Assembly: GCA_043767845.1 (NCBI GenBank)
Contig: JAYUFZ010000018.1
Coordinates: 3,312 to 67,311 of the forward strand
DNA length: 64,000 nucleotides
Origin: a bacterium
GTDB taxonomy: Bacteria > Patescibacteriota > Saccharimonadia > UBA4664 > JBBRNT01
Direction: 5' to 3'
In this document: positions 3,815 through 28,602 of the stretch, piece after piece
Layout: every line of letters begins with the position of its first letter
Numbering within the stretch: the first letter of the stretch is position 1
The notes under the pieces: generated by a model
What the model was told of the DNA's origin: nothing
Seen by the model: only the letters and a program-made list of their open reading frames with translations
Databases searched by the model: none
Position numbers and translations under genes: made by a program

Positions 3815-4189
3815 TTAGACGCGGCCGGCGACGAAGGTGACGGCGGCAAATGCCAATGAGGCAACAATGATGCCGATGATAGCATAGAGAATGGTGTTTT
3901 TGGCACCTTCGACAGCACTGGAGTTACCACTGGAGAGGACGTAGCGGAAACCACCAATGATCAGCATGATCACTGAGATGGCGCCTACTAGGAAGATCAA
4001 GGTGTTTGCAACCTTGCTGAAGATACCGCCAGCACCGAACAGTACGTTGGTGGCGTTGTTTGGCTGTGAGCCATTGATGCCGTTAATCAGGTCATCTGGG
4101 GCAGCCATTGCTGTACCGGCCAGCACGAGCGATGAGGTTGCTACTGCTGTAGCTTTCGCCGCAAAATTATTAATAGTGCTTACTTTCAC
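3815..4189 (-). CDS. T4SS pilin candidate (VirB2/TrbC-like), paralog 1 of 5
   Basis: Signal peptide (...LAGTAMA|AP), then two hydrophobic helices joined by a short polar loop: 'LIFLVGAISVIMLIIGGFRYVLSSGNSSAVEGAKNTILYAIIGIIVASLAF'. Same topology as VirB2/TrbC pilins and adjacent to VirB6/VirB3/VirB4 genes. Confidence 0.5.
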   Translation of the reverse strand: MKVSTINNFAAKATAVATSSLVLAGTAMAAPDDLINGINGSQPNNATNVLFGAGGIFSKVANTLIFLVGAISVIMLIIGGFRYVLSSGNSSAVEGAKNTILYAIIGIIVASLAFAAVTFVAGRV

Positions 4190-4277
4190 GTTTTCTCCTA
4201 TGCGTCTAATAAATTTATGAGATTACTTAGCATTATCATACCATACAGGGCACAAATGCAAGCTAGACTAAGCCGGA

Positions 4278-4649
4278 TTACACACGCGCGGCAATGAAAT
4301 GCGAAATTGCAAAGGCCATGCTGGCTACGATCAAACCGATAATGGCGTAGAGAATCGTATCCTTGGCCCCGCTCACCGCACTGGAGTTGCCGCTGGAGAG
4401 GACGTAGCGGAAACCACCAATAATGAGCATAATCACCGAGGCGGCCCCGACAATGAATACTAGCGTATTGGCCACGGCCATAAACACGCCTCCCGGAGCG
4501 AATAGCTCTGTTTTGGCGCCAGCCGGCTTGGTGTTATCAATGCCGTCGGTCACGGCTTTGATGGCGCCATATACCGGGGATGACAGGGCGAGGCTAAAAC
4601 CTACAATGGCAGCGGCTTGAGTTCTTTTGATGAGTGTTTGAACAGACAT
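4278..4649 (-). CDS. T4SS pilin candidate (VirB2/TrbC-like), paralog 2
   Basis: Start moved to ATG 4649 (MSVQTLIKR...), preceded by AAGGAGA at -6..-12; the track start 4721 overlaps the upstream paralog. Carries the shared motif 'GGFRYVLSSGNSSAVSGAKDTILYAIIGLIV'. Confidence 0.5.
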   Translation of the reverse strand: MSVQTLIKRTQAAAIVGFSLALSSPVYGAIKAVTDGIDNTKPAGAKTELFAPGGVFMAVANTLVFIVGAASVIMLIIGGFRYVLSSGNSSAVSGAKDTILYAIIGLIVASMAFAISHFIAARV

Positions 4650-4668
4650 GATTGTCTCCTTAGGTGGT

Positions 4669-4974
4669 TTAGAAACGGCCCGAGATAAAGGACGAGATAG
4701 CATAGCCGGAAGCGGCCACAATAATACCTACTACAGCATACAGAATACCATCCTTGGCGCTCTTTACAGAGCTTGAATTACCGGCCGATATGACATAACG
4801 AAGGCCACTTACGATAAGGACAATTACCGAGATGACGCCGACAATGAGCAGCAAAGTGTTAACAATCTTTACTGCTACTTCAGAAAGTGAGCCGCTAAAG
4901 AAGCCGGGGCCGCTATCAACAATACCAGTGTTACCAACTGTGATATCAGCCAAGAAGGGGAGTATGTGGTGCAT
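4669..4974 (-). CDS. T4SS pilin candidate (VirB2/TrbC-like), paralog 3
   Basis: 'LLLIVGVISVIVLIVSGLRYVISAGNSSSVKSAKDGILYAVVGIIVAASGYAI': same two-helix hairpin and motif. Confidence 0.5.
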   Translation of the reverse strand: MHHILPFLADITVGNTGIVDSGPGFFSGSLSEVAVKIVNTLLLIVGVISVIVLIVSGLRYVISAGNSSSVKSAKDGILYAVVGIIVAASGYAISSFISGRF

Positions 4975-4989
4975 AGTGGTTTTCCGAAA

Positions 4990-5325
4990 TTAAAATAGTG
5001 TCGTTGCAAAGGCCAGGATCGCCCAGGTCGATAGCGTTACAATAAGCCCAATTACCGCGTAGAGCAAGGTGTCCTTGGCAGTTTTAGTACCGCTCGGGCT
5101 ACCAGCCGATAGAACATATCGCAAGCCGGCGACCACTATGAAGATGACCGACAGCGTGCCGGCGATGAAGAGAGCCAGGGCAACGACATTGTGGATGAGT
5201 TGCTGCACTGCGAACAAGCCGCCAGTCGTACTGTTGTTTGGGTCAACATTCTGGAAAAGCGAGTTTGGCACGGGGTCATCCGCCAAAAGTCTGGGAATAG
5301 TAGCTATAAGTGACCGTAGAATCAT
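4990..5325 (-). CDS. T4SS pilin candidate (VirB2/TrbC-like), paralog 4
   Basis: 'ALALFIAGTLSVIFIVVAGLRYVLSAGSPSGTKTAKDTLLYAVIGLIVTLSTWAILAF': same motif. Confidence 0.5.
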   Translation of the reverse strand: MILRSLIATIPRLLADDPVPNSLFQNVDPNNSTTGGLFAVQQLIHNVVALALFIAGTLSVIFIVVAGLRYVLSAGSPSGTKTAKDTLLYAVIGLIVTLSTWAILAFATTLF

Positions 5326-5328
5326 TGG

Positions 5329-5841
5329 TTAAATTCCTATTAAACGAAGAATGAAGAACATTAGGCTCAATACTATCAGACCGACGACGGCGTTGGCGAT
5401 GCGGTTTTTGGCTTTCTTGATAGCATCCGGGCTGCCCTGGGAGGAAATGAACTGTATCCCCGACACAATAATAACCAGCGCCGCCAACCCGCCAATAATC
5501 CCAAACAACCAGTTGATGGCGAATTCTAAGAGGGCGAAAATGGGGTTTTTATTCGTGCAGTTGAGTGTTAGGCCGGGAGTTGTAACCTTATCGCAGGTGT
5601 ATGGATCAGGTTGTGCAGGATTATTGCCAACTGCGGTACTGGTGTGGCTGTTGCAGTAAGCAACGCCTCCATCATCCTTAATCTCGTTCTCTGGAATAAC
5701 TGTCACGCCATCCGGGCAAAGCGCAGCCGCTCGAGCTACGGGAACGGAGGAGGGTTGAAGAGCTAGCCCGATTAAACCCAGTATAATTTGGAGAAATATC
5801 CCAAACGAAAGCATTAACACAAATTTGTAAAAACGTTTCAT
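5329..5841 (-). CDS. T4SS pilin-like paralog 5 with Cys-rich extracellular insertion
   Basis: Start uncertain (ATG 5841 MKRFYKF... or 5904). N-terminal TM, then a ~80-aa segment with 6 Cys (CPDG..YCNSH..YTCDK..LNCTNK). C-terminal 'IIGGLAALVIIVSGIQFISSQGSPDAIKKAKNRIANAVVGLIVLSLMF' matches the paralog motif. Confidence 0.45.
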   Translation of the reverse strand: MKRFYKFVLMLSFGIFLQIILGLIGLALQPSSVPVARAAALCPDGVTVIPENEIKDDGGVAYCNSHTSTAVGNNPAQPDPYTCDKVTTPGLTLNCTNKNPIFALLEFAINWLFGIIGGLAALVIIVSGIQFISSQGSPDAIKKAKNRIANAVVGLIVLSLMFFILRLIGI

Positions 5842-5957
5842 TGCCGTGATTGTAGCCGAATTCAGGTTGCAAGCGCAAGGGGAGGGCTGTGGAGTAGACT
5901 CCAAGCAAAGCCGTTAATTCAACCTTTTTACTATCTTTAAGCCCTATTTGCCAGCGT

Positions 5958-5998
5958 AAGCAAATTGCTTTGACAAACAGGAGTAAATAGTGTAGAAT
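5958..5998 (+). promoter_or_regulatory. near-consensus sigma70-type promoter for the VirB6-like operon: -35 TTGACA (5970-5975), 17-nt spacer, -10 TAGAAT (5993-5998), abutted by palindrome AAGCAA-A-TTGCTT (5958-5970)
   Basis: Hexamers and spacing read directly. The palindrome touching the -35 is a candidate operator in the divergent pilin/VirB6 intergenic region. Confidence 0.55.
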
Positions 5999-6037: not shown

Positions 6038-8617
6038 ATGAGACATTTCTTCAAAAAATTTAGCCACACACCCCTTGTGCTTGGCCTTGGCGCCGTGGCG
6101 CTAGCTGTTGCAGTCCTTTTGAGCCCGGCCAAAGCAATGGCGGCCAGCGAAAGCTATTTCTATGGCCCGAGCTCCAATTTCAACACCGTCGTCGGCCAAA
6201 ACGGCGTCTTCGCCAAACCGACAGCCTTTACGCTAGCTTCGGAAACTGCTGATGCCAGGACTTATACCGCTACCCAATCCGTCACCTGCAGCAGCAAACC
6301 GGCCACTTCGACGCTTACACTGGTGGCCAAAAAAACCGACGGCAGCGGAAGCTTGGCAGTCGACGCTGCCACCGCCAGCTGCTATACCAGCGCCCCCGAT
6401 GCCACCATAGCTGTAGCCGACACCCAGGCGGCTGCCAAGCCGACAGTTCAGACTGCCGCAGCTGGGACTCCCGCGACAAGCAGACCCGCCGTCAAGCGAT
6501 GTGATGGTGGAGTTCTTACTTGGTTTCTATGTTCGCTCTATGATTGGATACTCAAATCAATCGACCAGATTGAACAAAACGTCATCGTACCCTTCCTCAA
6601 GATAGACCCGCTGGTCTTTGGAGACGCCAACAACCCCGGGTATGCCATTTGGCAAGGCGTGCGTACTCTAGCAAACGTCGTCTTTGTCTTGGCCTTTTTG
6701 GTCATTATATTTGCCAACACTCTTTCGCTGTCACTTGATAGCTACTCACTCAAAAAAACTCTGCCCAAGCTTGTAGCCGCGGCTATCCTGGTGCAGTTCT
6801 CATACTTAATCGTTGGGCTGGCCATCGACCTTACCAATATCGTTGGCTCTGGCCTAGGTGATTTGGTCATGACGCCCTTCAAGGTCGCCCAGCAGACCCA
6901 TATTAGTAATGGTGTAGCGGCGGGCCTCTGGGGCGTCGGCATCGCTGGTAGTATTTCCGCTACCTTGGCGCTCGCTAGTGGCGTGCTGACCGGTGGCATT
7001 CTATTCGTATTAATCGGTGCTTTCTTCGCAGTATTGGGCGTATTCTTAACGCTCGTGGCACGGCAGATTCTCGTGACACTACTGCTTATACTCTCTCCCT
7101 TGGCCTTCGTTGCTTGGGTGCTACCAAATACTAGCCATTACTTCACTATGTGGCGCAAATCGCTGACACGGCTACTAGTGATGTACCCGATTGTCGTTTT
7201 ACTGTTTGTGAGCGGCAAAATATTTAGTACCGTTACAGTGGCAGCCAACGGTGGTGGCGCAGGTAATGACACAATTCGTTCCCTTATAAGTGTCGTCGCT
7301 GGCGTTATTCCACTCTTCCTAATCCCTGCCGCCTTCAAATTTGCCGGTGCCGCGCTCTCAACAGTAGATGGCCTCATGCAGACAGTCCATGGCCGTAGCC
7401 GCAAAGCCTTCGAGGGATCGGGAGTTTACGAGCGGGCAAAAGCCCGTACAGACCAGCGCCGCACCGAACTGGCTAGCGGAAATAAGATTAAGTTCCTGGG
7501 CTCCAAGAAACTAGGCGACGCAATTACGGGCAATAGCCTCACGACATTAACAGCTCAGGGTCTGCCAGGCCTACTCTCGTATGGGGCCGATCACGCGCGG
7601 GCAAGCCTCAAGGGCGTTCCTTATGCTGGCTCGCACCAAGACGTCAAGGCTGTCTCTGACTTCATGAAAGAACGCAACGCCTGGGCTAAACGCCTTGAAG
7701 AAGAAGGCTTAAGCTTCAATGCCTATGCCGTACTAAGTAGAGGCAATAAGTGGGCCGACAAAGAAATAACTGACCTTAATGGCAAAGCTCAAACTGCTGC
7801 TACATCATCGCAAACTGCTGCTCAAACTGCTGCGAACTTCACGGCTGCTGCTCAAGCCTCTCGCCAAGCTGCGCAACAAGCAACAGCCGCGGGCAATACG
7901 ACCCTCGCAACGCAACTCAGCCAAACAGCCACCCAGCAAGATAGCGAAGCTTCCCGCCAGACGGCAATTTCCACGAGCCAGGCACGCAAGCACAGCGGCT
8001 TTCTTAGTGAAGTTAGCTCCATGCAAGGGGCAAAGCTGGAAGCAAGCCGCTATATGGGCGTCAGCGCCGCCCGTGTAGCTGCATTTAAACACCTTTCTGA
8101 CATCGATGTAGCTGGTGAGGACGACCTGAATGCACTTAAAAATTACTCTGGTATGGACGGAGGCTCAACAGTCGGTAAGTTGCTCGCTACCCAGAATTGG
8201 GAGCAACTAAAAGAAGGTGCACGAAAGACTAATGTACACTTGGCTTATAAGAATGTTGATGGCAGTATTGACAACACTGAGCTCTACAAGTTTGTTCAAA
8301 AGAAGAATAAAACAGCCTGGGCTGATTACTCGCTGGATGCCATCCATCACATGGCAGAAACCGGCATCTTGCATGAATTAGCAAAAGATGAAGGTATGCG
8401 CAAAACACTTACTGGAGCAACAAGCCTAGAGGGTGGTCCAAGCCTGGCTGCCCCGCAGGACGTCTTAGTACGCAAAATTCTCGCTGAAACCGACCCTGAT
8501 CCAGCCGTGCGAATCAATGGAACTTTCTCAAGCTACAACAAAAATACGGTCAAGACCTTTACTAAGGCCCAAAAGGACCAATCCAAAGCGAGCGCTGATA
8601 CTCTCGATTTCTCATAG
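6038..8617 (+). CDS. VirB6/TrbL-like T4SS polytopic membrane protein (paralog 1) with secreted N-domain and low-complexity C-terminal tail
   Basis: Signal peptide; conserved 'CDGGVLTWFLCSLYDWILKSIDQ...GYAIWQGVRTLANVVFVLAFLVIIFANTLS' block; about six TM segments. Paralogous to the next gene. Tail is Gln/Ala/Thr-rich. Confidence 0.6.
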   Translation: MRHFFKKFSHTPLVLGLGAVALAVAVLLSPAKAMAASESYFYGPSSNFNTVVGQNGVFAKPTAFTLASETADARTYTATQSVTCSSKPATSTLTLVAKKTDGSGSLAVDAATASCYTSAPDATIAVADTQAAAKPTVQTAAAGTPATSRPAVKRCDGGVLTWFLCSLYDWILKSIDQIEQNVIVPFLKIDPLVFGDANNPGYAIWQGVRTLANVVFVLAFLVIIFANTLSLSLDSYSLKKTLPKLVAAAILVQFSYLIVGLAIDLTNIVGSGLGDLVMTPFKVAQQTHISNGVAAGLWGVGIAGSISATLALASGVLTGGILFVLIGAFFAVLGVFLTLVARQILVTLLLILSPLAFVAWVLPNTSHYFTMWRKSLTRLLVMYPIVVLLFVSGKIFSTVTVAANGGGAGNDTIRSLISVVAGVIPLFLIPAAFKFAGAALSTVDGLMQTVHGRSRKAFEGSGVYERAKARTDQRRTELASGNKIKFLGSKKLGDAITGNSLTTLTAQGLPGLLSYGADHARASLKGVPYAGSHQDVKAVSDFMKERNAWAKRLEEEGLSFNAYAVLSRGNKWADKEITDLNGKAQTAATSSQTAAQTAANFTAAAQASRQAAQQATAAGNTTLATQLSQTATQQDSEASRQTAISTSQARKHSGFLSEVSSMQGAKLEASRYMGVSAARVAAFKHLSDIDVAGEDDLNALKNYSGMDGGSTVGKLLATQNWEQLKEGARKTNVHLAYKNVDGSIDNTELYKFVQKKNKTAWADYSLDAIHHMAETGILHELAKDEGMRKTLTGATSLEGGPSLAAPQDVLVRKILAETDPDPAVRINGTFSSYNKNTVKTFTKAQKDQSKASADTLDFS

Positions 8618-8637
8618 ATTCACCGTCACGTTTTTAA

Positions 8638-8670
8638 ATAGACCACCCATTCTCAGCGGTCTATTTTTTT
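8638..8670 (+). terminator. rho-independent terminator (TAGACC-acccattctcagc-GGTCTA + T8)
   Basis: Hairpin followed by TTTTTTTT, 20 nt after the stop of VirB6-like paralog 1. Confidence 0.6.
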
Positions 8671-8699
8671 TGCCCCGCCGATGTAGTACCATAACTAGT

Positions 8700-11600
8700 A
8701 TGAGAAGAGGTGTAGCAAAGGCTTGGTTAGCGGCATTGGGGCTGTCGCTAGTTTTGCCATTCCTGATTTCTGAAGGCGCTCTGGCCGCCCCACTTAGAAA
8801 AGGTGTTTGGCAAAATGATTCTGCCATTCTTTTTGATGCAAAAACCTTCATCAACAAAACTGGCGACGGGTCTGGCTCTTTTGTGTATGCCAAAGATAGT
8901 AAAGGTGTCGATATTCCTACATCCGACAATAATAATATTTATTGTGTTAAGGATGGAGATAAGATATTTGTGCAACTGGGACAAACTTACAGCGACTTTA
9001 GTACAAATTACGGCATCCCATTCTATGTAATTCGCGATATAAACGATGCTCATGATCGAGCCAACTATGATGTATATGCAAGACTTCTCGTCAATAATAA
9101 CGGTGCAGTATTAACACAGACTCAGTTTAATAGTAAAAAAGGTAGTGAGTCAGTACCAATCAGCTATTATATCCAGTGTCGCAAGACTCAAGCTGAAGAG
9201 CCTATTGAGCTTACAAATGCCTCTGTATCAACTGACGCGTATGCCTGGAAATGGAAAAACGAAATTGATTCCACGAATGGTAAGAAGGCTTGGATATTAA
9301 ATAGCACTGATCCCAAATTCCCTGTAGGCTCCTACGTTTGGCAGGCGGATACAAACCATGATGGCTGCAAAGAATATATCGTACCTAGTGCCGATGGTAC
9401 TAAAGGCAAAAGATATCATGGCGGAGGAAACTCAGCTGGAACTCCACCGCACTGTATCTACGACGATCCGCCAGAAGATATTACTATTGCTAACGCTACC
9501 CATAAAGACGATACGACGGATCCCGGTACCTCCCCTGGTAATCCAGTAAATCCAGGCGGATCAGGCAAGGCTAGTTGTGATGCTGGCGTCCTCGGATGGT
9601 TCTTGTGTCCAGTAATTCGCATGGCCGTGAACCTCTATCAGATTTTGAGCGACCAAGTCATCAAACTACTCGATCTAGGGTCTCTTGAAAGTGGTAGCAA
9701 TGTATTTCTTATATGGCAGAATATGCGCAATTTGGCCAATGTGCTCTTTGTATTAATCTTCCTGATTATCATATTCTCGAACACTCTCTCAATAGGTATT
9801 GATAATTACACCTTTAAAAAGATGCTCCCACGCCTCGTTGCCGCAGCGGTTCTTGTTCAGTTTTCCTGGGTAATCATGACCCTACTATTTGATATCACAG
9901 CGGCAGTTGGAGCGGGGATCGGTGACCTTATTAGTCTGGCAGTAGGTAGCGGTGTACCGAGTGCAGGTAGTACACCTAAAGGCTTTGCGCTAGTCGGAAC
10001 GGCCTTCGGGTTGCTTGGCATTGGCGGGGGGGCGATCGCTGCCATTGTACTTTTTCCTGAGCTCCTGATCCTAGCGCTTCTCTTTACAGTTGGGGCCCTC
10101 TTCGGAATCATGGCAGTATTCTTTACCATTACGATACGTTCTTTCTTGCTTTCCATACTAGTGGCAATTGCGCCGCTAGCTTTTGTGGCTTGGATCCTAC
10201 CAAATACCGAGAGCTACTTTAAAACCTGGTGGAAGACACTTATTCGACTGCTGCTCATGTATCCAATTATCAAGGCGATGTTCGCCTTCGCCGAGGTAGG
10301 CGGCCTACTTACGGTAGGATCAAATTTCTCTAATTTGCATAATGGGCTCGATAAGGCGATGGCGGGCGTTATGGCCGCCCTTTTGCCAATTGTAGCCTTC
10401 TACGCTACCACAAAAGTCTTTACCTGGGCGGGCGGTGCGATGTCGCTGTTTAGCAATGCAGTCAACAAGCGGGCTAGATCGGCCCAAGCGCGCATCGCTA
10501 AGTCCAACGTGCGACGAGACGCAAAAGTCGGGCTTACGAATCGGGTTGCAAACTTCAAAGCTGGTGGTGGGCTTAAGGTGCCACTAAGTTCTAGTCCTAT
10601 CCTAAACAGTGACTCCAGGCTGGGTAGGGCCGCAGCTGGGGCTGCGCGTATAGCTACCCTGACTTCCAAGAATAATGCTACAAGAGGTCGTAATACTGCT
10701 GCAAAGGCAGCTGGGGAAGCAATGGCACTTGAAGGCTGGACGGCGGATGATTATAAAATGCAGATGGGCCAAAAAACTTACTACGACAGCCAGACCGCCG
10801 ATCTCAAAAAGAAAGTCCAATCAGGTGAACTCACGCAGGCAGAGGCAGATCTTAAGCAGTCTAAGCTAAAAGCCAGTCGAGACCGTACCGAGAAGTATTG
10901 GGGAAGTAGTTCGAGGTCTCTTGCTGCTCAACAAAACCTCACTTCAAATGGCTTAGTCGACGACAGTACCCGACAAAACATTATTGACCGGTTCGGCAAG
11001 GACCAGTTTGCCCAGCAACTTTGGACTAATTCAGCAGCTACTGCACGAAACTCTAATCCCCAGCTTATGTTTACAAGCCTGGAGAGCGATGCAGCAGGCA
11101 AGCCGGTAATTGATCGAGCAGGGCTTAAGAGTCATCTGGCTAAGCAGAATCAAGCCACCTGGGCAAGCTTCAGTGAACCGGCTATTCAATCTATGGCCGA
11201 TAACGGTATCCTTGACGAATTCGCCAATGCCAGTAGCTCGAATGCCGAGCTTCTCCTTTCACTTCGATCAAACGAAGGCGGCCCTAGTATTGGTGCTGCT
11301 CAGCAAGCAATTATTGCCGGGGCAGGCACGCACAAAGACGACGCCGGCGTAATTCACAACCCTGGGTCCGTCAACAGGGCGATTGATGCAGTAGCTGCGT
11401 CCAGGGCAGCTGCACGGGCCACTGTAGGGACACCGGCAGGTTCAACAACAACTACCACAACAACTGCCGGCGGTGTTAGTGGCTCAGCGGCCAGCGCGTG
11501 GGCTCCGCCAAGTGGCGGCCTACCAGTCGGCAGCACAGTCCCAAGTATAGGTGGCGTTACCCCAGTCGCGACTCCAGTACCGACCGCGAGCGGTAAGGTG

Positions 11601-12398
11601 GCTTCCGTTGGAGGCTCCAGTTCTGGCGGTGTACTTGGCGGCGTTCTTGGTAGCAGTGGATCTTCAGGCGGCGGCGGTTCATACAGTCCAGGAGTTACGG
11701 CCTCAGCCGTTAGCAGCACACCGGGAAACCCCGGTGCCAACCCAAATACTTCCCGGATTACCCCACCGAGCTCAGTTGGCTGGACACCGACAGCTAGTGG
11801 CTCAGGGCTAGTAATCCCACCGAGCTCCGGCGCCCCGGCACCTACCGTATCAGGCCCGTCAGCACCATCACCAGAAGAGTTAGCCGAACGTGTTGAGCGA
11901 AGCGTGTTCGACGCTACAGCTGCAGCAAGAAAGGCAGCCGATGCAGGAGCTGCAGCAGCAGCCGCTACTTCAACCCCAACGGGCGCATCATCTGGCACCA
12001 CCACAGACTATGCCCCCGGATCAGGCATAAGCAACCCGGATATCGACGTTAAGGTCGAAGCCCCGAGCTCAGCAACAGTCCTCCCCTCGACAGCAGGTGC
12101 AGTACCATTCAGCGCAGGAGCGCCAGCTAGTACAGGGAATAGCAGCGCAACTGGTAGCCCAGCAGCAGGCATGGCCAATCCAGCCCCAGCTCTAGCCACG
12201 CCACCATCAAGCAAGCCTGTCGCGGGTCCAACAAATATGCCCACCAGCGAACCAAACAGCGGCCCAGCAGCTGCAAGCCCGACCCTGGACATCAACTCCA
12301 CGGAGCTACCCAGCCGCCCCTCACTCGGTGAAATAATTAGACCGACCGTAGCCTCCCCAGATGAGACCCCTCCGGCCGATCCACCAACGACTCCATAG
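8700..12398 (+). CDS. VirB6/TrbL-like T4SS polytopic membrane protein (paralog 2), 1232 aa, with ~600-aa Ser/Thr/Pro/Ala/Gly-rich C-terminal tail
   Basis: Start moved to ATG 8700 (MRRGVAKAWLAALGLSLVLPFLISEGALA = signal peptide), downstream of the terminator. Conserved 'CDAGVLGWFLCPVIRMAVNLYQ...FLIWQNMRNLANVLFVLIFLIIIFSNTLS' plus TM bundle. The tail has TTTTTT, SSGSSGGGGS and AAAAAAT runs. Confidence 0.6.
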   Translation: MRRGVAKAWLAALGLSLVLPFLISEGALAAPLRKGVWQNDSAILFDAKTFINKTGDGSGSFVYAKDSKGVDIPTSDNNNIYCVKDGDKIFVQLGQTYSDFSTNYGIPFYVIRDINDAHDRANYDVYARLLVNNNGAVLTQTQFNSKKGSESVPISYYIQCRKTQAEEPIELTNASVSTDAYAWKWKNEIDSTNGKKAWILNSTDPKFPVGSYVWQADTNHDGCKEYIVPSADGTKGKRYHGGGNSAGTPPHCIYDDPPEDITIANATHKDDTTDPGTSPGNPVNPGGSGKASCDAGVLGWFLCPVIRMAVNLYQILSDQVIKLLDLGSLESGSNVFLIWQNMRNLANVLFVLIFLIIIFSNTLSIGIDNYTFKKMLPRLVAAAVLVQFSWVIMTLLFDITAAVGAGIGDLISLAVGSGVPSAGSTPKGFALVGTAFGLLGIGGGAIAAIVLFPELLILALLFTVGALFGIMAVFFTITIRSFLLSILVAIAPLAFVAWILPNTESYFKTWWKTLIRLLLMYPIIKAMFAFAEVGGLLTVGSNFSNLHNGLDKAMAGVMAALLPIVAFYATTKVFTWAGGAMSLFSNAVNKRARSAQARIAKSNVRRDAKVGLTNRVANFKAGGGLKVPLSSSPILNSDSRLGRAAAGAARIATLTSKNNATRGRNTAAKAAGEAMALEGWTADDYKMQMGQKTYYDSQTADLKKKVQSGELTQAEADLKQSKLKASRDRTEKYWGSSSRSLAAQQNLTSNGLVDDSTRQNIIDRFGKDQFAQQLWTNSAATARNSNPQLMFTSLESDAAGKPVIDRAGLKSHLAKQNQATWASFSEPAIQSMADNGILDEFANASSSNAELLLSLRSNEGGPSIGAAQQAIIAGAGTHKDDAGVIHNPGSVNRAIDAVAASRAAARATVGTPAGSTTTTTTTAGGVSGSAASAWAPPSGGLPVGSTVPSIGGVTPVATPVPTASGKVASVGGSSSGGVLGGVLGSSGSSGGGGSYSPGVTASAVSSTPGNPGANPNTSRITPPSSVGWTPTASGSGLVIPPSSGAPAPTVSGPSAPSPEELAERVERSVFDATAAARKAADAGAAAAAATSTPTGASSGTTTDYAPGSGISNPDIDVKVEAPSSATVLPSTAGAVPFSAGAPASTGNSSATGSPAAGMANPAPALATPPSSKPVAGPTNMPTSEPNSGPAAASPTLDINSTELPSRPSLGEIIRPTVASPDETPPADPPTTP

Positions 12399-12534
12399 TC
12401 CCGACAATACGGCAACTAGTCAGCACCCCAGCTAATGTATTACAATGATCAATTGCGGATGAGCAGCCAGAGAAGCAATCATGGTTCGTAATTAGGATTC
12501 ATGATTCATCCTGCTTAAGCTATAATGGAGACAT

Positions 12535-13356
12535 ATGGGCCAGTACAAAGTCCCACAAAACGTTGAGGCGGAAGACAAGATCCTTGGGCCACTGACGCTC
12601 AAGCAGTTTATCTATGCCATCATTGCCGTCGGGGTGGCTGTCGTGACTTACCTCATCGGCAAGTACCTGCCATTCGTCTACATTGCCGGTGTTCCGCCAG
12701 CCCTGCTCTTTGCCCTGCTAGCCACTCCCCGAGGCGATAAGCAGCCCTTCGAGGCCCTCTTCCTGGCCCTGGTCAGCTTCACGGTCAAGCCGCGCAAGCG
12801 CGTATGGCTCAAAGACCCAATCGCCGAAGTCTTCATGATCGAAGCCCCCAAGCCAGTGGAGGAGGCCCCTGCCGTCGATTCCCGCCAAGTCCACGGGCAA
12901 CTCGAGAAATTATCCCAGATCATCGATACTCGCGGCTGGGCGGCCAAGCAGCCTGACATCCAGGAGCCCGACTCCACGTACTTCGATAATCTCACTACCG
13001 ACGACCGCCTAGCCTCGGTGGAGTACGTAACGGTTGGCGACATTAATAGCGACATTAGTGTGGCCGACGACATTCTAGACTTCAAAAACAACCCGTCGGC
13101 CCAAAACCTCGATCAGCTCATCGAAGACAGCGTGGCCAACGTCCGCCTAGAGGCCATGCAGAAGATGCGCGAGCAAGCCAACCATCCAGCCCCAACAACT
13201 GGCGGCGGAGCAATGACCCCGCAAGCTTCTAATGCTATACTGAGACAAGCGATGAGTAGTTCGGAGTTAACGGTTAGCCAAGTTGCGGCTCAAGCCCAGC
13301 GCTACGGACGACTCGAAGAAGGTCAGAAAGTGGAGATATATAATGGCAGCAACTAA
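12535..13356 (+). CDS. PrgI/VirB3-like T4SS membrane protein with acidic C-terminal extension
   Basis: N-terminus 'KVPQNVEAEDKILGPLTLKQFIYAIIAVGVAVVTYLIG...' matches the PrgI-family signature (KIxGPLTxKQ + TM hairpin). TATAAT lies 9 nt before the ATG. Confidence 0.6.
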   Translation: MGQYKVPQNVEAEDKILGPLTLKQFIYAIIAVGVAVVTYLIGKYLPFVYIAGVPPALLFALLATPRGDKQPFEALFLALVSFTVKPRKRVWLKDPIAEVFMIEAPKPVEEAPAVDSRQVHGQLEKLSQIIDTRGWAAKQPDIQEPDSTYFDNLTTDDRLASVEYVTVGDINSDISVADDILDFKNNPSAQNLDQLIEDSVANVRLEAMQKMREQANHPAPTTGGGAMTPQASNAILRQAMSSSELTVSQVAAQAQRYGRLEEGQKVEIYNGSN

Positions 13357-14416
13357 TCAAAAGATTGCCAGCAATCCAAATAGTCAGCTGAAAAGCACGC
13401 AAAACAGCATGCTTATTTCAGAGATTAAGGATGGGATTGTGATACTCAAGGACGGCACTATGCGGGCCGTAGTGCTAGCAAGCGCCATCAACTTCGACTT
13501 GATGAGCCGCCAGGAACAAGACGCCGTCGAGTACAGCTACCAGGGCTTCCTGAACTCACTACATTTCCCAATCCAGATCGTCGTGCGCTCTCAGAAAATC
13601 GACCTCGACCGCTACATCGAGACACTTACCGAACTGCGCGCCAACCAAGGCAATGAGCTGCTCGGACTACTCATGGAAGATTATATTGCCAACATCAAGG
13701 CCCTCATCGACGAAGTAAACATTATGAATAAGCAGTTCTATGTGGTCGTGCCCTACGACCCACCAGTCATTACCAAAACTGGCTTTTTCGATAAGCTCGG
13801 CGGCATCGTGAAGGGGGCTGGCGTTACAGTGGTGAGCGAGCAGGACTTCGCCAACTATAAGACTGAGCTGTCGCAGCGGGTCGCACTGGTAGCCAGCGGA
13901 CTCAACCAGCTGGGCATCCGGGCCATCCCGCTCAATAGCCAAGAACTCATCGACCTCTACTACTCGACATACAATCCCGACGTCGCCGCCAACCAAAAAC
14001 TCATCGACAGCAGCCAGCTGCAAACGCCTGTCGTTTTGCGTAGCGATCAGCCAACCAACACCAGCTACCGCCAAGCCCTGCCAGAAGCCGCTGCCGACTT
14101 TACTGTAGCCCCGGCTTCATCACCTATCGACAACCAGCCGGCAATGCAGATACCGACCCGCTCGGACATCCCGACCTCCAATATGCCAATGGTCGCCCCC
14201 GAAGAACCCCCGACGGCACCAATTACGCAGCCAGGCCCGCTCCCCGAGTACTACGCCCAGCCAGCCGCGCCCGTTCAAGCTCCTGTGGCGGGTGACCCGA
14301 ATGCCGTCATCGACAATCCCAACGCCTACGATCCTTTCATCATCCAGCAGAACCAGGCGGCCTTAGCCGCTGCCCAGGCAGTCGCACCAACTACCACTGA
14401 ACCAGGAGCACAGTAA
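13343..14416 (+). CDS. VirB4 N-terminal domain protein (separate ORF) with Pro-rich disordered C-terminus
   Basis: Start at ATG 13343 overlaps the upstream stop (ATGGCAGCAACTAA). 'IKDGIVILKDGTMRAVVLASAINFDLMSRQEQDAVEYSYQGFLNSLHFPIQIVVRSQKID' resembles the N-terminal region of Gram-positive VirB4/TraE-family ATPases. Tail is P/A/Q-rich. Confidence 0.5.
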   Translation: MAATNQKIASNPNSQLKSTQNSMLISEIKDGIVILKDGTMRAVVLASAINFDLMSRQEQDAVEYSYQGFLNSLHFPIQIVVRSQKIDLDRYIETLTELRANQGNELLGLLMEDYIANIKALIDEVNIMNKQFYVVVPYDPPVITKTGFFDKLGGIVKGAGVTVVSEQDFANYKTELSQRVALVASGLNQLGIRAIPLNSQELIDLYYSTYNPDVAANQKLIDSSQLQTPVVLRSDQPTNTSYRQALPEAAADFTVAPASSPIDNQPAMQIPTRSDIPTSNMPMVAPEEPPTAPITQPGPLPEYYAQPAAPVQAPVAGDPNAVIDNPNAYDPFIIQQNQAALAAAQAVAPTTTEPGAQ

Positions 14417-14418
14417 TC

Positions 14419-16269
14419 ATGGCCTTCGGAAAAAAAGTTGATCCAAACGCTCAGGCAGAGGCGGTAAAGCGCCAAGAACAGGCTGAAGCCGAGCAGATTT
14501 ACCGCCAGGGAATCGTCTCGCTGCGCGACCTGATTGCTCCGCCATCGCTGGAGATTGAGTCTGGCTATTTCCGCATCGGCAAGCGCTTTGCTCGGACAAT
14601 ATTCGTCTACGGCTACCCCCGCCAAATATTCACCGGCTGGATGTCACCGATCATAAATCTCGATGAAGTGCTGGACCTTAGCATTAATATTTATCCGGTC
14701 GAGTCAGCCGTCGTTTTAAATAACCTGAAGCGTAAGGTAGGCCAGCTAGAGGCCGATTTCACCATCAACCAGGAAAAGGGGAGAGTACGCGACCCCGGGC
14801 TTGAAGCCGCCATCCAGGACGCCGAGGAATTGCGCGACAAGCTCCAGGTCGGCGAGGAGCGCTTCTTCCGTTTCGGGCTATATGTCACGATGTACGCTGG
14901 CACGCTTGAGGAACTCAATCAAGTACAGCGCAAGATCGAAGGCATATTCGGCCAATCACTTATCTATACCAAGCCAGCTACCCTTCAAATGGAGCAGGGC
15001 TTTAATTCCAGCCTACCGCTCGGCGCCGACCAGCTCCAAGTGTCGAGAAATATGGATACTGGTTCGCTTTCGACAAGCTTCCCCTTCACCTCGGCCGAAC
15101 TCAGCCGCAATGAAGGCGTGCTCTACGGCCTCAACCGCCACAATAACGGTCTAGTGCTCTTCGACAGATTTAGCCTGGAAAATGCCAATATGGTTGTCTT
15201 CGCTAAATCCGGTGGTGGTAAATCCTTCGCCGTGAAGCTTGAAGCCGTACGCAGCCTGATGCTCGGCGTTGAGATATTGATTATCGATCCCGAGAACGAG
15301 TACCAGACGCTCTGCGACGCAGTTGGCGGTAGCTACCTTCGCCTCAGCCTAGCCTCGGCCACCCGCCTGAATCCCTTCGATCTGCCGCACGTACTCGATA
15401 GCGAGGATGCCGACAACGCTTTGCGCGCCAATATTATTACCCTCCATGGCCTTTTGCGACTGATGATGGGGGGTGCCCAAGCCCAAGCCATGGGTGCGGC
15501 TACCGGCGGCATGGTCTCGAGTGCCAATGCTCTCAGCCCAGCCGAGGACGCTGACCTCGACGTGGCCATCATAAATACCTACGCCCGCGCCGGGATTACC
15601 AATGACCCACTGACCCATGGCGCCACCCCACCAACCATGAACGATCTCTACAACACGCTAGTAAGTATGACTGGCAACGGTCCAGCCCTAGCCCAGCGTC
15701 TGCGTAAATACACCACGGGTACTTTTTCTGGAATCTTTAGCCAGCAGTCCAACGTCGATATCAATAATAAGTTTGTGGTCTTTAATATTCGTGACCTAGA
15801 AGACGAGCTCCGCCCAGTGGCTATGTACATTGTGCTCAACTACATTTGGAACCGGGTCAAAAGTGATAAGCGCAAACGTATTCTGATAGTCGACGAAGCC
15901 TGGCAGCTCATGAAGTACGATGACTCCGCCAACTTCATGTTCTCTATAGCCAAGCGCGCCCGTAAGTATTACCTCGGCCTCACTACTATTTCGCAAGATG
16001 TGGAAGATTTCTTAAGCTCCAGGCTTGGTAGGGCAGTGGTCTCCAACTCCTCACTTCAACTCTTGCTCAAGCAAGCGCCCTCTGCCGTCGACCTCATAGC
16101 CGATACCTTCAAGCTGACCGACGAGGAAAAGAAACGCCTTACCCAATTCCCGGTGGGCGAGGGCCTCTTCTTCGCGGGCCTCAACCATATTATTATTAGA
16201 ATACTGGCCTCACAAACTGAGTCGCAACTCATAAGCACGAACCCGCAACGAAGAGGGGACGGAGTATAG
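14419..16269 (+). CDS. virB4: VirB4/TraE-family T4SS ATPase (ATPase portion)
   Basis: Walker A 'VVFAKSGGGKSFAVK', Walker B 'ILIVDEAWQLM', and 'RTIFVYGYPRQIFTGWMSPI' typical of VirB4. Starts 2 nt after the previous stop, in a different frame. Confidence 0.8.
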   Translation: MAFGKKVDPNAQAEAVKRQEQAEAEQIYRQGIVSLRDLIAPPSLEIESGYFRIGKRFARTIFVYGYPRQIFTGWMSPIINLDEVLDLSINIYPVESAVVLNNLKRKVGQLEADFTINQEKGRVRDPGLEAAIQDAEELRDKLQVGEERFFRFGLYVTMYAGTLEELNQVQRKIEGIFGQSLIYTKPATLQMEQGFNSSLPLGADQLQVSRNMDTGSLSTSFPFTSAELSRNEGVLYGLNRHNNGLVLFDRFSLENANMVVFAKSGGGKSFAVKLEAVRSLMLGVEILIIDPENEYQTLCDAVGGSYLRLSLASATRLNPFDLPHVLDSEDADNALRANIITLHGLLRLMMGGAQAQAMGAATGGMVSSANALSPAEDADLDVAIINTYARAGITNDPLTHGATPPTMNDLYNTLVSMTGNGPALAQRLRKYTTGTFSGIFSQQSNVDINNKFVVFNIRDLEDELRPVAMYIVLNYIWNRVKSDKRKRILIVDEAWQLMKYDDSANFMFSIAKRARKYYLGLTTISQDVEDFLSSRLGRAVVSNSSLQLLLKQAPSAVDLIADTFKLTDEEKKRLTQFPVGEGLFFAGLNHIIIRILASQTESQLISTNPQRRGDGV

Positions 16270-16272: not shown

Positions 16273-19266
16273 ATGGCACTACTGGAGGATGAGAAATTAG
16301 TTCCGGCAGACGACTTACCCAAGCACAGCAAGGGCGAAAGTAAGCTGAGCGAGTCAGTCTCCGACTCCGACGTTGATAGCCGTTTCAATGAATTAGCAAG
16401 CTCCACGCCGGCCATTTCCGATAACGAAGCAGCCAATCGCTACGCCGAGCAAACCGCCCCCGAGGATCAGTACACCAGTGATGGCAACGAACGCCCAAGC
16501 AGATTCCAAGGTACCGTAAAGAAGCTGCGGAAGAGGCGAGGACTACTCATTGGCGGCACTATCACCGCCGCACTGGTAGGTTTTTTAATATTTATCATCC
16601 TATTTCTGATCGGGTTTAAGCTCAACCACATTAAGAACCTCATGCTAGACTACGAGTTCGCGAGCTTTAATCGAGCTCTTTCTAAAGAAATGAACCACAT
16701 GATAACCGAGGACGCTATACTGTCCGAGGGAAGTGGCAGACTTCCTCAGATCGATACTCCAAGTCTAATTGATAAGCTGCGCGGCTACGACCCCGATACC
16801 ATCCTTCGTAATCTTGGGAATGCTGGAATGGAGCTCGATTTCGAGCCAGGTCGCTTGGGTGTCAAGGGTAAGTTAAGGAGTATCACCACACCAGAAGGTG
16901 AAGTCTACTGGCGCGAGGGGGCGGCGGGAACACCGCCGGCTAATGCAAAATCGCTATCAGACGGCGAATTCTTAACCAAGTATAAATCCACAATAGATAC
17001 TCAATTGGTTGATGAAAGAGGTTTTATCCGACGAAGCGTCTGGAAAGACCTTCGCGAGAATAGCGGCATCTCCTTCGCTAAATGGAAGGAATTCCTCGAG
17101 AAATTCAAGGCAATAGACCCTACACCAGAAGAAGCAAGAGCTACTTCACGAGCTGAGAATGACGCCACTATAGCCGACGGGCAAACCATCACTGGAGAAA
17201 ATGTAGACGGACTTGAGGAGGGTGCCAAGCAGGCTGCAGCCGATCATAAGGTCGGCCTGCTGGAGGAGGAGATTAAGCCCAGGTTAAGCGAGCGATTTGG
17301 GCTCGGAAGTAAGATCGCCACAGTGTCACAGGTAGTTTTCTATTTAACTGTTATATGTATTGCCCACGACATATATGCCTCCCTAGAGAAAATTATGGTC
17401 AATAAAAGTGATAGTCTCATGCGTGAAGCAGCCGACTTAAACACCAAGGCAGATCAGCAGAAATATGGTAGTGATCAAGTAACAACTGCCGCTATTAACC
17501 AATCGAATAACGAGTATGATGGCATGGAGGCAGGCGCGGCCTACCAAAGAGCAGCGGGCGAGCCAGTTGCTCTCGACAGTAAGGGTAACCCAGTCAATGA
17601 TCTTCCTGAAGAAGACTACCCCCAGCAAATCATAGGTATGAAGCTAAATGCTTTTGTTACCATCGCCAAAACCGCTGATACCGTGGCTACCGCTGCTGCT
17701 GCTGCTATTATTGCAGGGCCGGAAGCAGCGGCTGTCTGCGTTGCTTCTGACTTCCTGAGCAAAATACCCTTTATTGGACGAGCTGCTGCCTTCATAGCTG
17801 GACACACAATTTCAAAACTATGTAAAAACGCAGCTGATGTTTTTTATAGAGTCGTCTGTAAGCCAATTCTTGATCCTAGATTTCAAATTGGCCTAGCAGT
17901 AGCCGAAATTGGACTCGTCTGGCTTGATGGTGGCCTAAAGGCAGTACTAGCCGCATTTACAGAGGCACTACCTAGACTGGCGCTGCAATACGCCGGAACT
18001 GAGATCTTATTTGGGCATATTATCCCAAGCCTCATGGAAGATCTATCAGGCTTTCACCATAGCGGCCAAGAGACTGCTCCAACGCGTATCGCCAAGGTGG
18101 ACGCAGGCGATAATCTATTAAGAAACTCCACGGCAATGGCAACTGGTGCCCATAAAATTAGTACCAAGAAAGCCCTGCGCGACCAGGCGGTTGCCATAAA
18201 AGAGCGTCAAGATTCCATTCGTAAGCAGAGTCTAGCCTATCGCTGGTTCAACCTCGACAACAACTATTCACTTGCTACCCGCTTCCTGGTAGCAATTCCG
18301 ACCGGCCCACGGAGTATGATGGCAAAGATCAATAGCTTTACCGCCGCCATGCGCAACCCGTTTAGCATTGTGGCTTCATTGAGTACACCAGTTCAAGCCA
18401 GCATAGAGGACTACGGTCCAGAGGCACTCTACGGTATCCAACAATATGGCTGGGATGATACTGAGCTCGATCCGAAGGATGCAACTTTTAACTTTGATAC
18501 CAATACCCACTACGTGGAATCGAAGTACGAAGATTTGCAGAAGAAGTACGGCCAATGTTTCCAGGGCAAGCTCATTGATAGAGAGCTGAAAGGCGCCTTT
18601 GGCGACAGTAAATATGATAACTGTAAGGATGTGGACGCAAAAAGGTTTGGTAAGTACGTACTTGATTGTTACTCGGTAGAACAACTGCTCTCCCAAGGAT
18701 CGACGGACGATACCTATAATAATAGTGACTGTTCAGCGGTTGTGAAAGGCGAGAAAGGGGCTGACAGTACGCCCAACCCATCTAACGACGATACACCAGA
18801 CGATGCCGACATCGGCGCAGGAATTGATACTTCGAGTGTACCCTGCGCCGCAGGGACCGACGCCGGCATTCAAGAAACGTATCAAAAGAATTCCATTCAC
18901 CTCTGCACCGTCGGTGGCATTACCGTAAACGCATCTATCTCCGGCCAGCTAAATAGCTTGTTAACCAAGGCTAAAGCCGCAGGCATAACCCTCACTGGTA
19001 GCGGCTTCCGCAGTTACAAAACACAAATACAGCTCCGAAAAGATCACAATTGTGCCGATATTTACACGGCCTCTGCCAAGACTTGTAATCCGCCCACGGC
19101 AAGACCAGGTACCTCTATGCATGAGCAGGGCTTAGCAATAGATTTCTCGGGTATCGGCCAGCACGATCCAACAAACCCTAAATTCATCTGGCTCTCGGCA
19201 AATGCTGGTCCCGACTTCCAGAACTTACCCTCAGAATCATGGCATTGGTCGACAAATGGACGCTAA
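16273..19266 (+). CDS. membrane-anchored T4SS-associated cell-wall hydrolase, C-terminal peptidase M15 (VanY / D-Ala-D-Ala carboxypeptidase-like) domain
   Basis: Single TM (LLIGGTITAALVGFLIFIILFLIGF) after a ~95-aa cytoplasmic N-terminus. C-terminal 'FRSYKTQIQLR...GTSMHEQGLAIDFS' matches the M15 Zn-binding SxHxxGxAxD motif. Confidence 0.6.
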   Translation: MALLEDEKLVPADDLPKHSKGESKLSESVSDSDVDSRFNELASSTPAISDNEAANRYAEQTAPEDQYTSDGNERPSRFQGTVKKLRKRRGLLIGGTITAALVGFLIFIILFLIGFKLNHIKNLMLDYEFASFNRALSKEMNHMITEDAILSEGSGRLPQIDTPSLIDKLRGYDPDTILRNLGNAGMELDFEPGRLGVKGKLRSITTPEGEVYWREGAAGTPPANAKSLSDGEFLTKYKSTIDTQLVDERGFIRRSVWKDLRENSGISFAKWKEFLEKFKAIDPTPEEARATSRAENDATIADGQTITGENVDGLEEGAKQAAADHKVGLLEEEIKPRLSERFGLGSKIATVSQVVFYLTVICIAHDIYASLEKIMVNKSDSLMREAADLNTKADQQKYGSDQVTTAAINQSNNEYDGMEAGAAYQRAAGEPVALDSKGNPVNDLPEEDYPQQIIGMKLNAFVTIAKTADTVATAAAAAIIAGPEAAAVCVASDFLSKIPFIGRAAAFIAGHTISKLCKNAADVFYRVVCKPILDPRFQIGLAVAEIGLVWLDGGLKAVLAAFTEALPRLALQYAGTEILFGHIIPSLMEDLSGFHHSGQETAPTRIAKVDAGDNLLRNSTAMATGAHKISTKKALRDQAVAIKERQDSIRKQSLAYRWFNLDNNYSLATRFLVAIPTGPRSMMAKINSFTAAMRNPFSIVASLSTPVQASIEDYGPEALYGIQQYGWDDTELDPKDATFNFDTNTHYVESKYEDLQKKYGQCFQGKLIDRELKGAFGDSKYDNCKDVDAKRFGKYVLDCYSVEQLLSQGSTDDTYNNSDCSAVVKGEKGADSTPNPSNDDTPDDADIGAGIDTSSVPCAAGTDAGIQETYQKNSIHLCTVGGITVNASISGQLNSLLTKAKAAGITLTGSGFRSYKTQIQLRKDHNCADIYTASAKTCNPPTARPGTSMHEQGLAIDFSGIGQHDPTNPKFIWLSANAGPDFQNLPSESWHWSTNGR

Positions 19267-21049: not shown

Positions 21050-21052
21050 CTT

Positions 21053-23604: not shown

Positions 23605-23776
23605 CTTTTGCCTACATTAACCCCACCTATTCCCATCGATCGTCATCTCGACCAGAGTGGAGAGATCTATCTAAGTCCTTGATTAGCTTCATCGTGAATA
23701 TCTATCATTAGATCTCTCGGCTACGCTCGAGATGACGATCGAGGAGCCCAAACAAAAGAGCGTCTGCTGCGAGCGA

Positions 23777-24889: not shown

Positions 24890-24896
24890 GTTTTCC

Positions 24897-27004: not shown

Positions 27005-27013
27005 GGCAGGGTT

Positions 27014-27382: not shown

Positions 27383-27383
27383 T

Positions 27384-28594: not shown

Positions 28595-28602
28595 CGCTTA
28601 GC

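Follow-up and report, generated by a model that had tools for sequence, protein, structure and literature searches.

Two paralogous genes and their domains

This analysis concerns two adjacent genes, here called P1 and P2, in a stretch of 64,000 nucleotides (the window) from an ultra-small bacterium of the Saccharimonadia (Patescibacteria/CPR; GenBank assembly GCA_043767845.1, contig JAYUFZ010000018.1, positions 3,312 to 67,311 of the forward strand). Both genes code for long proteins in which a membrane core resembling VirB6, a component of type IV secretion systems (T4SS), is preceded by a secreted N-terminal domain (N-domain) and followed by a large C-terminal extension. Their features are given below, numbered from the first position of the window. 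Structural assignments and predicted local distance difference test scores (pLDDT) come from AlphaFold2 (AF2) models, and the cellular side of each domain is a prediction.

6038..12398, + strand: P1 and P2, two long open reading frames (ORFs) filling the region
6038..8617, + strand: P1, extended VirB6-like protein of 859 amino acids (ORF; identical to P0001, which has a precomputed PF19590 TrbL_3 match)
6038..6142, + strand: P1 signal peptide, residues 1-35, cleavage motif AMA|A (read from the sequence; hydrophobic segment 13-31)
6143..6487, + strand: P1 predicted extracytoplasmic N-domain, residues 36-150, a small beta-sandwich with Cys84 and Cys115 (AF2)
6497..6535, + strand: P1 Cys-pair motif RCDGGVLTWFLCS (C155, C165), with at least 90% conservation across the family
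6512..7417, + strand: P1 VirB6 membrane core, residues 159-460 (hydropathy, AF2 helices, hhalign, Foldseek)
7634..8497, + strand: P1 predicted cytoplasmic helical domain (C-domain), residues 533-820 (AF2; pLDDT 92-98, first ten residues 82)
8700..12398, + strand: P2, extended VirB6-like protein of 1232 amino acids (ATG at 8700; matches P0077)
8700..8789, + strand: P2 signal peptide, residues 1-30, cleavage motif ALA|A (read from the sequence)
8790..9569, + strand: P2 predicted extracytoplasmic N-domain, residues 31-290, with four cysteines
9573..9611, + strand: P2 Cys-pair motif SCDAGVLGWFLCP (C293, C303), invariant in the P2-centred alignment
9585..10529, + strand: P2 VirB6 membrane core, residues 296-610 (AF2 helices, Foldseek, hhalign)
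10620..11267, + strand: P2 predicted cytoplasmic helical C-domain, residues 641-856, homologous to that of P1
11370..12395, + strand: P2 tail rich in S, T, P, G and A, residues 891-1232, about 340 amino acids (entropy, composition)

The two proteins share 35% identity over 402 amino acids (BLASTP, E 1e-59), and a second BLASTP block, at 28% identity over 168 amino acids (E 5e-11), lies within their tails. The segments NVVFVLAFLVIIFANTLS and NVLFVLIFLIIIFSNTLS, on which the original prediction of two paralogs with a membrane core in shared register was based, are present, and the alignment bears that prediction out. The mean pLDDT of the AF2 models is 80.7 for P1 and 65.6 for P2, the confident core of the latter extending over residues 296-620.

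The frame of P2 is open from position 8517, and its leading 61 codons, which overlap the end of P1, precede the ATG at 8700. This ATG opens a typical signal peptide (MRRGVAKAWLAALGLSLVLPFLISEGALA, cleaved before AP), and the start of P2 is most likely here and not at 8517. The NCBI call for the identical protein P0077 begins at a TTG at 8736, 12 codons downstream, and gives 1220 amino acids. With the start at 8700, which excludes the 61 upstream codons, the N-domain of P2 measures about 260 amino acids after the signal peptide of 30. Therefore, the extracellular N-domain of about 320 amino acids that had been claimed for P2 keeps its predicted outward orientation but loses part of its length.

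The signal peptides of P1 and P2 are of the Sec type, and since they are predicted to be cleaved the N-domains should lie outside the cell. The AF2 strands of the P1 N-domain are found at residues 39-127 with a pLDDT of about 85-96, and in the closest homologs the similarity to this domain is no more than weak. For the P2 N-domain, a local BLAST against 189 fetched relatives returned a single homolog (P0056, 29% identity, E 5e-11). N-domain length ranges from 0 to 735 amino acids over 191 family members, with a median of 320. All cysteines of the two proteins are located in the N-terminal part (four in P1, six in P2) and none is present in the P2 tail, a distribution that fits disulfide bonding outside the cytoplasm. 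The signal peptides and the confinement of cysteines to the N-region thus back the earlier claim that the N-domains are secreted.

The conserved cysteine pair at the membrane border was also correctly noticed from the sequence. With its C-x9-C spacing, the pair shows at least 90% conservation across the 76 sequences of one family alignment and is invariant in a second, P2-centred alignment; in P1 the pair is placed at the start of helix 159-187.

The C-terminal extensions agree less well with what had been proposed, namely low-complexity tails of some 600 amino acids on both proteins. The P1 tail has 389 amino acids, most of them in a confidently folded helical domain that follows a disordered linker (residues 486-525, AF2). 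An A/Q/T-rich stretch (residues 575-650) forms a long hairpin inside this domain, so structurally P1 has no low-complexity tail. For P2 the total length was right (621 amino acids), but only residues 891-1232 are of low complexity, since residues 641-856 form the helical domain; the latter is recognised by the second BLASTP block and by a hidden Markov model (HMM) of the C-domain (1e-27), and most of its blocks have a pLDDT of 83-96.

When the C-domain of P1 was searched against 1.84 billion proteins, 16 cluster representatives (at 50% identity) were recovered. All full-length matches are located at the C-terminus of VirB6-like proteins, and the four short proteins among the 16 are taken to be fragments. 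The HMM finds the C-domain in 56 of the 191 relatives; it is lineage-restricted, belonging to a narrow subclade. Foldseek also matched this domain to ESCRT-III/Vipp1 and to coiled coils of the SNARE type, with a probability of no more than 0.75 and E >1; these matches were discarded as generic helical-hairpin similarity.

Relationship to the VirB6/TrbL family

The assignment of P1 and P2 to the VirB6/TrbL family, suggested by the original prediction, is based on several lines of evidence. P0001, identical to P1, carries a precomputed, unmarked match (E ≤1e-5) to PF19590 TrbL_3, described as 'TrbL/VirB6 plasmid conjugal transfer like protein', which is also found on most of the approximately 190 relatives. 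The version of the Pfam model matters: TrbL_3 version.4 misses P1 and P2, whereas version.5, used in the precomputed matches, recognises P1. P2 has no precomputed TrbL_3 match and belongs to the family by its 35% identity to P1. Among 39 distant members, 15 show a match to PF04610 TrbL, of which P0065 scores highest and is the one to pass the cut-off (30.1 bits against 25.9).

Profile comparison gives a more direct link to VirB6. A reference alignment of 11 annotated plasmid VirB6 proteins of the MPF_T type, including TrwI of R388 (NC_028464), was built independently. With hhalign, the P1-centred family alignment matches this reference over 101 columns with 93.1% probability (P 3.1e-7), and the P2-centred alignment with 91.5% probability (P 8.5e-7). 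Reversed profiles, which retain composition and hydrophobicity, only reach P values of 0.012-0.027. A comparison of a 12-sequence core alignment with TrwI alone is weak (15% probability, P 0.0017), and the PLAF...W motif is already aligned in it.

The hhalign result pairs P1 residues 323-425 with TrwI residues 151-252. In this region R342, P354, T365, F369 and W372 of P1 correspond to K170, P181, T192, F196 and W199 of TrwI. R342, P354 and W372 are invariant in the P1/P2 family and T365 and F369 nearly so, while G180, P181 and W199 (TrwI numbering) are invariant within the VirB6 set. The core motif, a basic residue followed by G-P-(L/I)-F and then by T-x-x-F-F-x-x-W, with invariant Pro and Trp, is therefore present.

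Structural searches against 350,542 PDB chains with Foldseek tend in the same direction. The best match of the P1 model is TrwI/VirB6 (probability 0.96). The top eight matches of the P2 model are TrwI/VirB6 chains, with a probability of up to 0.98 and a TM-score of 0.36-0.41 over about 290 columns. With E values of 0.06-0.12 and a large root-mean-square deviation (rmsd) for both models, the fold similarity is by itself no more than suggestive. Since TrbL_3, TrbL, hhalign, Foldseek and the T4SS gene context described below all agree, membership of P1 and P2 in the VirB6/TrbL family is regarded as established.

Homolog searches show that nearly all relatives of P1 and P2 come from genome bins of Candidatus Saccharimonadia/Saccharibacteria. 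In some public records relatives are called 'MFS transporter' or 'ABC transporter permease', and one relative comes from a bin labelled Nanoarchaeia; mis-annotation and mis-binning are probably the cause. The 'MFS/ABC permease' names should be considered wrong. A weak match of P2 to DUF7027 (E 0.008) is below the cut-off and was set aside.

Membrane topology and the tail of P2

The membrane core contains five or seven hydrophobic helices according to hydropathy and the AF2 models, the ambiguity being located at P1 residues 296-365, with a low-confidence stretch at 285-316. The mean net charge of each segment over the 76 family sequences, with its predicted side, is as follows.

Pre-membrane helix: net charge -1.2, outside
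Loop a-b: net charge +2.3, inside
Loop b-c: net charge -1.0, outside
Loop e-f: net charge +1.8, inside
Loop f-g: net charge -0.5, outside
40 residues after the last helix: net charge +5.2, inside

Neither P1 nor P2 shows a further hydrophobic segment, an LPXTG motif or an anchor after the core (hydropathy, sequence), and the C-terminus of P2 (...PSLGEIIRPTVASPDETPPADPPTTP) has neither that motif nor a hydrophobic anchor. As the number of helices is odd either way and the N-terminus is outside, the C-terminus would be cytoplasmic. By this computational prediction the N-terminus lies outside the cell and both tails lie inside. The resemblance to VirB6 proteins with surface-exposed extensions, proposed earlier, would then hold for the N-domains, which are directed outwards, and not for the tails, given the strongly positive segment behind the last helix and the absence of any later hydrophobic segment.

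The tails of canonical VirB6 proteins are informative in this respect. All 11 MPF_T VirB6 proteins of the reference set end in basic tails of 50-122 amino acids, 57-79% of which are G, S, A, T, P, Q or N, and one VirB6 tail from Caballeronia is very similar in style to that of P2. The solved TrwI chains cover 260-272 residues of a protein of 342, consistent with an unresolved, disordered tail. In A. tumefaciens, topology work on VirB6 reportedly places the C-terminus and its tail in the cytoplasm. Since a short C-terminal tail rich in G, S and A is found in canonical VirB6 as well, that of P2 can be seen as an exaggerated family trait, and we infer that it is a disordered cytoplasmic region and not a surface extension. 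The TrsD-like protein of the same locus carries a P/A/Q-rich tail of about 115 amino acids, yet has no signal peptide or membrane segment, and low-complexity tails are therefore no marker of surface exposure in this organism. As a separate observation, the low-complexity filter of BLAST masks the final 60 residues of TrwI even when this protein is matched with itself.

In the P2 tail, S, T, P, G and A account for 31-42 of every 50 residues, and the tail is nearly uncharged. Over the 191 family members tails have a median length of 331 amino acids and a median low-complexity content of zero; with 344 low-complexity residues, P2 ranks second. Several other members have acquired low-complexity tails of 100-370 amino acids independently. 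No homolog of the P2 tail was found by local BLAST among the 189 fetched relatives, and a scan of JGI metagenomes gave no close relative of P2, only a distant core match. The sole other assembly that contains P1 stops 52 codons into P2.

At the DNA level the tail is essentially devoid of repeats: only four micro-repeats of 22-27 nucleotides and three direct-repeat pairs of 19-30 nucleotides were detected, making a mis-assembled repeat, which had been named as a possible refutation, unlikely. The synonymous codon score of the + frame in the tail is -1.399, about 4 standard deviations better than that of uniform usage (-1.494 +/- 0.023). Two antisense ORFs overlap the tail:

11354..12004, - strand: antisense ORF, judged spurious (codon usage no better than uniform)
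12008..12415, - strand: antisense ORF, judged spurious (codon usage no better than uniform)

They lack the genome-like codon bias of the + frame, in agreement with the warning that the tail codes for spurious antisense ORFs. These are by-products of a coding sequence rich in GCN, CCN, ACN and GGN codons and should be ignored in annotation.

The secretion locus, its interpretation and its relation to known systems

P1 and P2 are located between a divergent array of pilin genes and a set of genes for T4SS motor components. The features of the surrounding region are listed here.

3815..5904, - strand: VirB2-like pilin array of five genes (PF18895), divergent from P1; four detected by direct Pfam scan (E 3.6e-7 to 5.6e-10)
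5970..5998, + strand: promoter-like site TTGACA-17-TAGAAT upstream of P1 (11 of 12 consensus positions; a consensus match only)
8636..8671, + strand: weak candidate attenuator or terminator hairpin in the gap between P1 and P2, a stem of 9 base pairs (AAAUAGACC/GGUCUAUUU) followed by U8
12535..13356, + strand: PrgI/VirB3-like gene (Pfam PrgI, E 3.8e-13)
13283..14416, + strand: TrsD-like gene (E 8e-8)
14419..16269, + strand: VirB4 ATPase gene of the CD1110 family (373 bits, cut-off 325)
16273..21049, + strand: two large wall-hydrolase proteins with C-terminal VanY (E 3.1e-9) and Peptidase_M23 (E 3.2e-10) domains (Pfam)

The fifth pilin gene (4669-4974) is recognised through a precomputed PF18895 match on an identical Logan contig. 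The five pilin genes are tandem and divergent, and the one closest to P1 (5329-5904, 191 amino acids) has a long, Cys-containing N-terminal extension ahead of the pilin domain. The hairpin between P1 and P2, which sits in a gap of 82 nucleotides, has a minimum free energy of -11.7 kcal/mol and a z-score of -1.79; the terminator scan missed it because its loop is longer than 8 nucleotides. Transcription reaching P2 could be attenuated by this hairpin with its U-run. VirB4 and the TrsD-like protein, which is homologous to the N-terminal portion of VirB4, have separate genes here; the TrsD-like gene probably starts at an ATG near 13343, overlapping the end of prgI.

The VanY and M23 proteins are likely VirB1 analogues. 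Downstream of virB4, the region 16273-22270 (+ strand) codes for a 997-amino-acid protein ending in VanY, a 615-amino-acid protein ending in M23 and a 405-amino-acid protein with weak beta-propeller matches. All three have no recognisable family over most of their length and are likely wall-remodelling or structural parts of the secretion system. Just upstream of the pilin array (433-2271, + strand) is found a gene for a 612-amino-acid protein with Big_5 Ig-like and Peptidase_C39-like domains, which may be a secreted or surface protease.

The recF, dnaN, dnaA, yidC and mnmE genes occupy positions 22531-29952 of the window, dnaA, dnaN and recF being at 22.5-26.6 kb, 4-8 kb past the final gene of the cluster; the secretion locus therefore adjoins the chromosomal replication origin. 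The monoderm-type VirB4, TrsD, PrgI, the VirB2-like pilin array and VirB6, in an origin-proximal position, complete the list of T4SS components published for Patescibacteria. VirB5 and VirB7-10 were not recognised in the window, and none of its scanned ORFs matches a coupling-protein or relaxase family, seven ORFs of at least 150 amino acids being left unscanned. Farther away, the region 29962-46017 contains a surface polysaccharide cluster with several GT1/GT2 glycosyltransferases, a Wzy-like ligase, a flippase and a GDP-mannose dehydratase.

The duplication seen here is not isolated. Among 72 related loci in species-representative genomes, 9 have two VirB6-like cores in tandem, with variation in order and in the size of the N-domains, and in six more genome bins the two copies are on different contigs. 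Homologs of the P1 type and of the P2 type that come from equally long contigs are in several cases probably linked too. The paired VirB6 arrangement is a recurring feature of Saccharimonadia T4SS loci, and no discussion of it was found in the literature searched.

These results lead us to consider it probable that P1 and P2 are paralogous extended VirB6 subunits of a chromosomal, origin-proximal Saccharimonadia T4SS, and that they act as follows. Each protein would have a cleaved signal peptide, a fast-evolving and probably disulfide-bonded extracytoplasmic N-domain, a C-x9-C clamp at the first helix, and the VirB6 core. By analogy with TrwI of R388 and PrgH of pCF10, the cores of P1 and/or P2 would probably form an oligomeric (pentameric) membrane platform; in the R388 stalk, for instance, a VirB6 pentamer lies beneath the VirB5/VirB2 assembly. 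The adjacent VirB2-like pilins might polymerise on such a platform and substrates might pass through it, again by analogy. The variable N-domains could encircle the base inside the wall or be turned towards the host. The helical C-domain could dock the PrgI/TrsD/VirB4 motor or recruit cargo, a coupling protein being apparently absent from the system. Only P2 would carry, after the helical domain, the disordered S/T/P/G/A-rich tail of about 340 amino acids. In a bolder version, to which we give little credit, the N-domains, hypervariable and stabilised by disulfides, would be host-specific adaptors of the pilus base or tip, paired with particular pilins, and the clade-restricted C-domain together with the P2 tail would substitute for the coupling protein in bringing cargo to VirB4. 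If this were true, the appended domains of a duplicated VirB6 would replace functions of the missing VirB5, VirB7-10 and coupling protein.

Several observations weigh against this interpretation. Direct Pfam and NCBIfam scans of P1 and P2 give nothing significant (TrbL has an E of 5.6 on P2), so that the proposed check by TrbL/VirB6 HMMs succeeded through the precomputed TrbL_3 match of P1 and failed in live scans. When the PDB sequences were searched with the 76-sequence family profile, no VirB6 was recovered. The Foldseek E values (0.06-0.12) all stay above 0.001, and the rmsd is 8-13 Å. The P2 N-domain has no confident model (pLDDT 26-55, mostly 30-40). The topology is deduced from an AF2 model of the monomer, from hydropathy and from the positive-inside rule, and a composition rich in S, T and P is more usual in linkers outside the cell than in segments inside it.

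This last point is at the heart of a variant in which the proteins are VirB6 but the P2 tail, and possibly both C-domains, are extracellular and form a stalk of mucin-like character, perhaps glycosylated, that would cross the wall to reach the host cell. The T-runs of the tail, the ambiguous helix number at P1 296-365 and the glycosyltransferase-rich cluster in the window would suit such a stalk. However, both helix counts lead to a cytoplasmic C-terminus, which also agrees with the +5.2 net charge after the last helix; an extra hydrophobic segment, an LPXTG motif or a C-terminal anchor is missing; canonical VirB6 proteins have analogous C-terminal tails; and the tail has no cysteine, compared with six in the N-region of P2. 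We therefore consider an exposed tail unlikely. A wall-anchored mucin-like surface protein was likewise rejected, since the C-terminus of P2 has no sorting signal and its tail is predicted to be inside.

P2 could also be a decaying or functionally relaxed duplicate, with a neutral tail that has no role in secretion and arose when a stop codon was lost or by read-through into GC-rich sequence. The lack of a tail homolog among the 189 relatives and in the JGI metagenome scan, the rank of this low-complexity tail as the second longest of 191 where the median is zero, a tail codon bias midway between uniform and genome-typical, and the hairpin and U-run that separate P1 from P2 would all be expected of such a gene. 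We find it improbable nevertheless, because P2 keeps every family-invariant residue, the Cys pair, the C-domain and an intact frame of 1232 codons; at least 9 of 72 loci have tandem VirB6 pairs, besides the six bins with two copies; other members bear low-complexity tails of their own; and the position of P2 beside prgI corresponds to that of the essential SEML1_0011 gene of Southlakia epibionticum. That assembly created the tail from a collapsed or chimeric repeat is extremely unlikely: its low-complexity coding sequence and open antisense frames might raise the suspicion, but DNA-level repetition is almost absent, the frame is continuous with the C-domain and the codon bias is specific to it. 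Hardly more credible is that P1 and P2 are another kind of polytopic membrane protein, such as an MFS transporter or an ABC transporter permease. Although some database records carry such names and a direct Pfam TrbL match on P1 and P2 is absent or non-significant, neither protein has an MFS or ABC match in Pfam or NCBIfam at E ≤0.1, while hhalign, TrbL_3, Foldseek and the gene context all indicate VirB6.

P1 and P2 are best regarded, then, as paralogous extended VirB6 subunits, and as such they can be compared with VirB6 proteins from other systems. With canonical MPF_T VirB6 (TrwI, PDB 7O3V/8RT9/8RTD, and VirB6 of A. tumefaciens) they share the K/R, G-P, T, F-F and W positions, the outward N-terminus and a basic, low-complexity C-terminal tail, at a sequence identity of 13-19%. 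In contrast, canonical VirB6 proteins have 310-405 amino acids and are devoid of a signal peptide with a folded N-domain, of the C-x9-C motif and of a helical cytoplasmic domain; their partners in diderms are VirB5 and VirB7-10, none of which was seen in this window.

Extended VirB6 proteins have been defined as a VirB6 core with at least one large central or C-proximal hydrophilic domain (PMC12857230). P1 and P2 have C-terminal extensions of 389 and 621 amino acids, respectively, and N-domains of 115-260 amino acids. Among VirB6-like proteins of monoderm conjugation systems, PrgH of pCF10 is predicted, in an AlphaFold-based PrgH/PrgF pilus model, to form a pentameric platform for VirB2-like pilins (bioRxiv 10.64898/2025.12.18.695078). 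P1 and P2 resemble extended VirB6 and PrgH in combining a VirB6 core with large hydrophilic domains, and the VirB4 of this locus is of the MPF_FATA type (CD1110 family). Unlike the PrgH-type plasmid systems, the present one is chromosomal and apparently non-conjugative, its counterpart is essential in a cultured relative, and no match to the P1 core turned up among 72,556 plasmids (tblastn).

A parallel can also be drawn with the Rickettsiales. These bacteria likewise are obligately host-associated, have reduced genomes and are reported to possess duplicated VirB6 beside duplicated, divergent VirB2 pilins; they are, however, diderm alphaproteobacteria with a full VirB7-11/VirD4 set, and the duplication would be independent and the appended domains unrelated. 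For instance, Ehrlichia chaffeensis is credited with four VirB6 paralogs (PMC2612412, as cited in PMC12857230).

The closest known systems are the T4SS of Patescibacteria, which resemble monoderm MPF_FATA systems, have pilin arrays, lie near the origin, usually lack a coupling protein or relaxase, and are essential for the epibiotic growth of S. epibionticum (PMC12102498, PMC10633639, PMC12857230). In this species a virB6 gene has been detected and reported as essential; the best match of SEML1_0013 is an AlphaFold-database protein named TrbL/VirB6, and SEML1_0011, of 998 amino acids, which adjoins prgI and was scored as essential, has as best AlphaFold-database match a 'Type IV secretion system protein' (PMC10633639, PMC12102498). 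The locus described here shares with that of S. epibionticum a chromosomal position near the origin, the absence of a coupling protein or relaxase nearby, and two large VirB6/T4SS-like genes, for proteins of about 1000 amino acids, between the VirB2-like pilin array and prgI/trsD/virB4. It differs in having no NTF2/VirB8-like gene between the paralogs. With respect to its patescibacterial relatives, the 340-amino-acid low-complexity tail of P2 is near the extreme of the family, and the C-domain is confined to its narrow subclade.

No T4SS other than that of Patescibacteria has been reported as essential for the growth of the bacterium that owns it, and VirB6 is the central membrane component of the patescibacterial system. 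The locus shows traits of patescibacterial VirB6, such as tandem pairs, variable outward N-domains behind a Cys clamp and sizeable, presumably cytoplasmic extensions, and these traits offer concrete handles on what the machine transports and how hosts are recognised. The current picture of this secretion system is left unchanged: the locus is a further member of a known family, in a system described in 2023-2025, whose appended domains and extreme tail are of modest interest.

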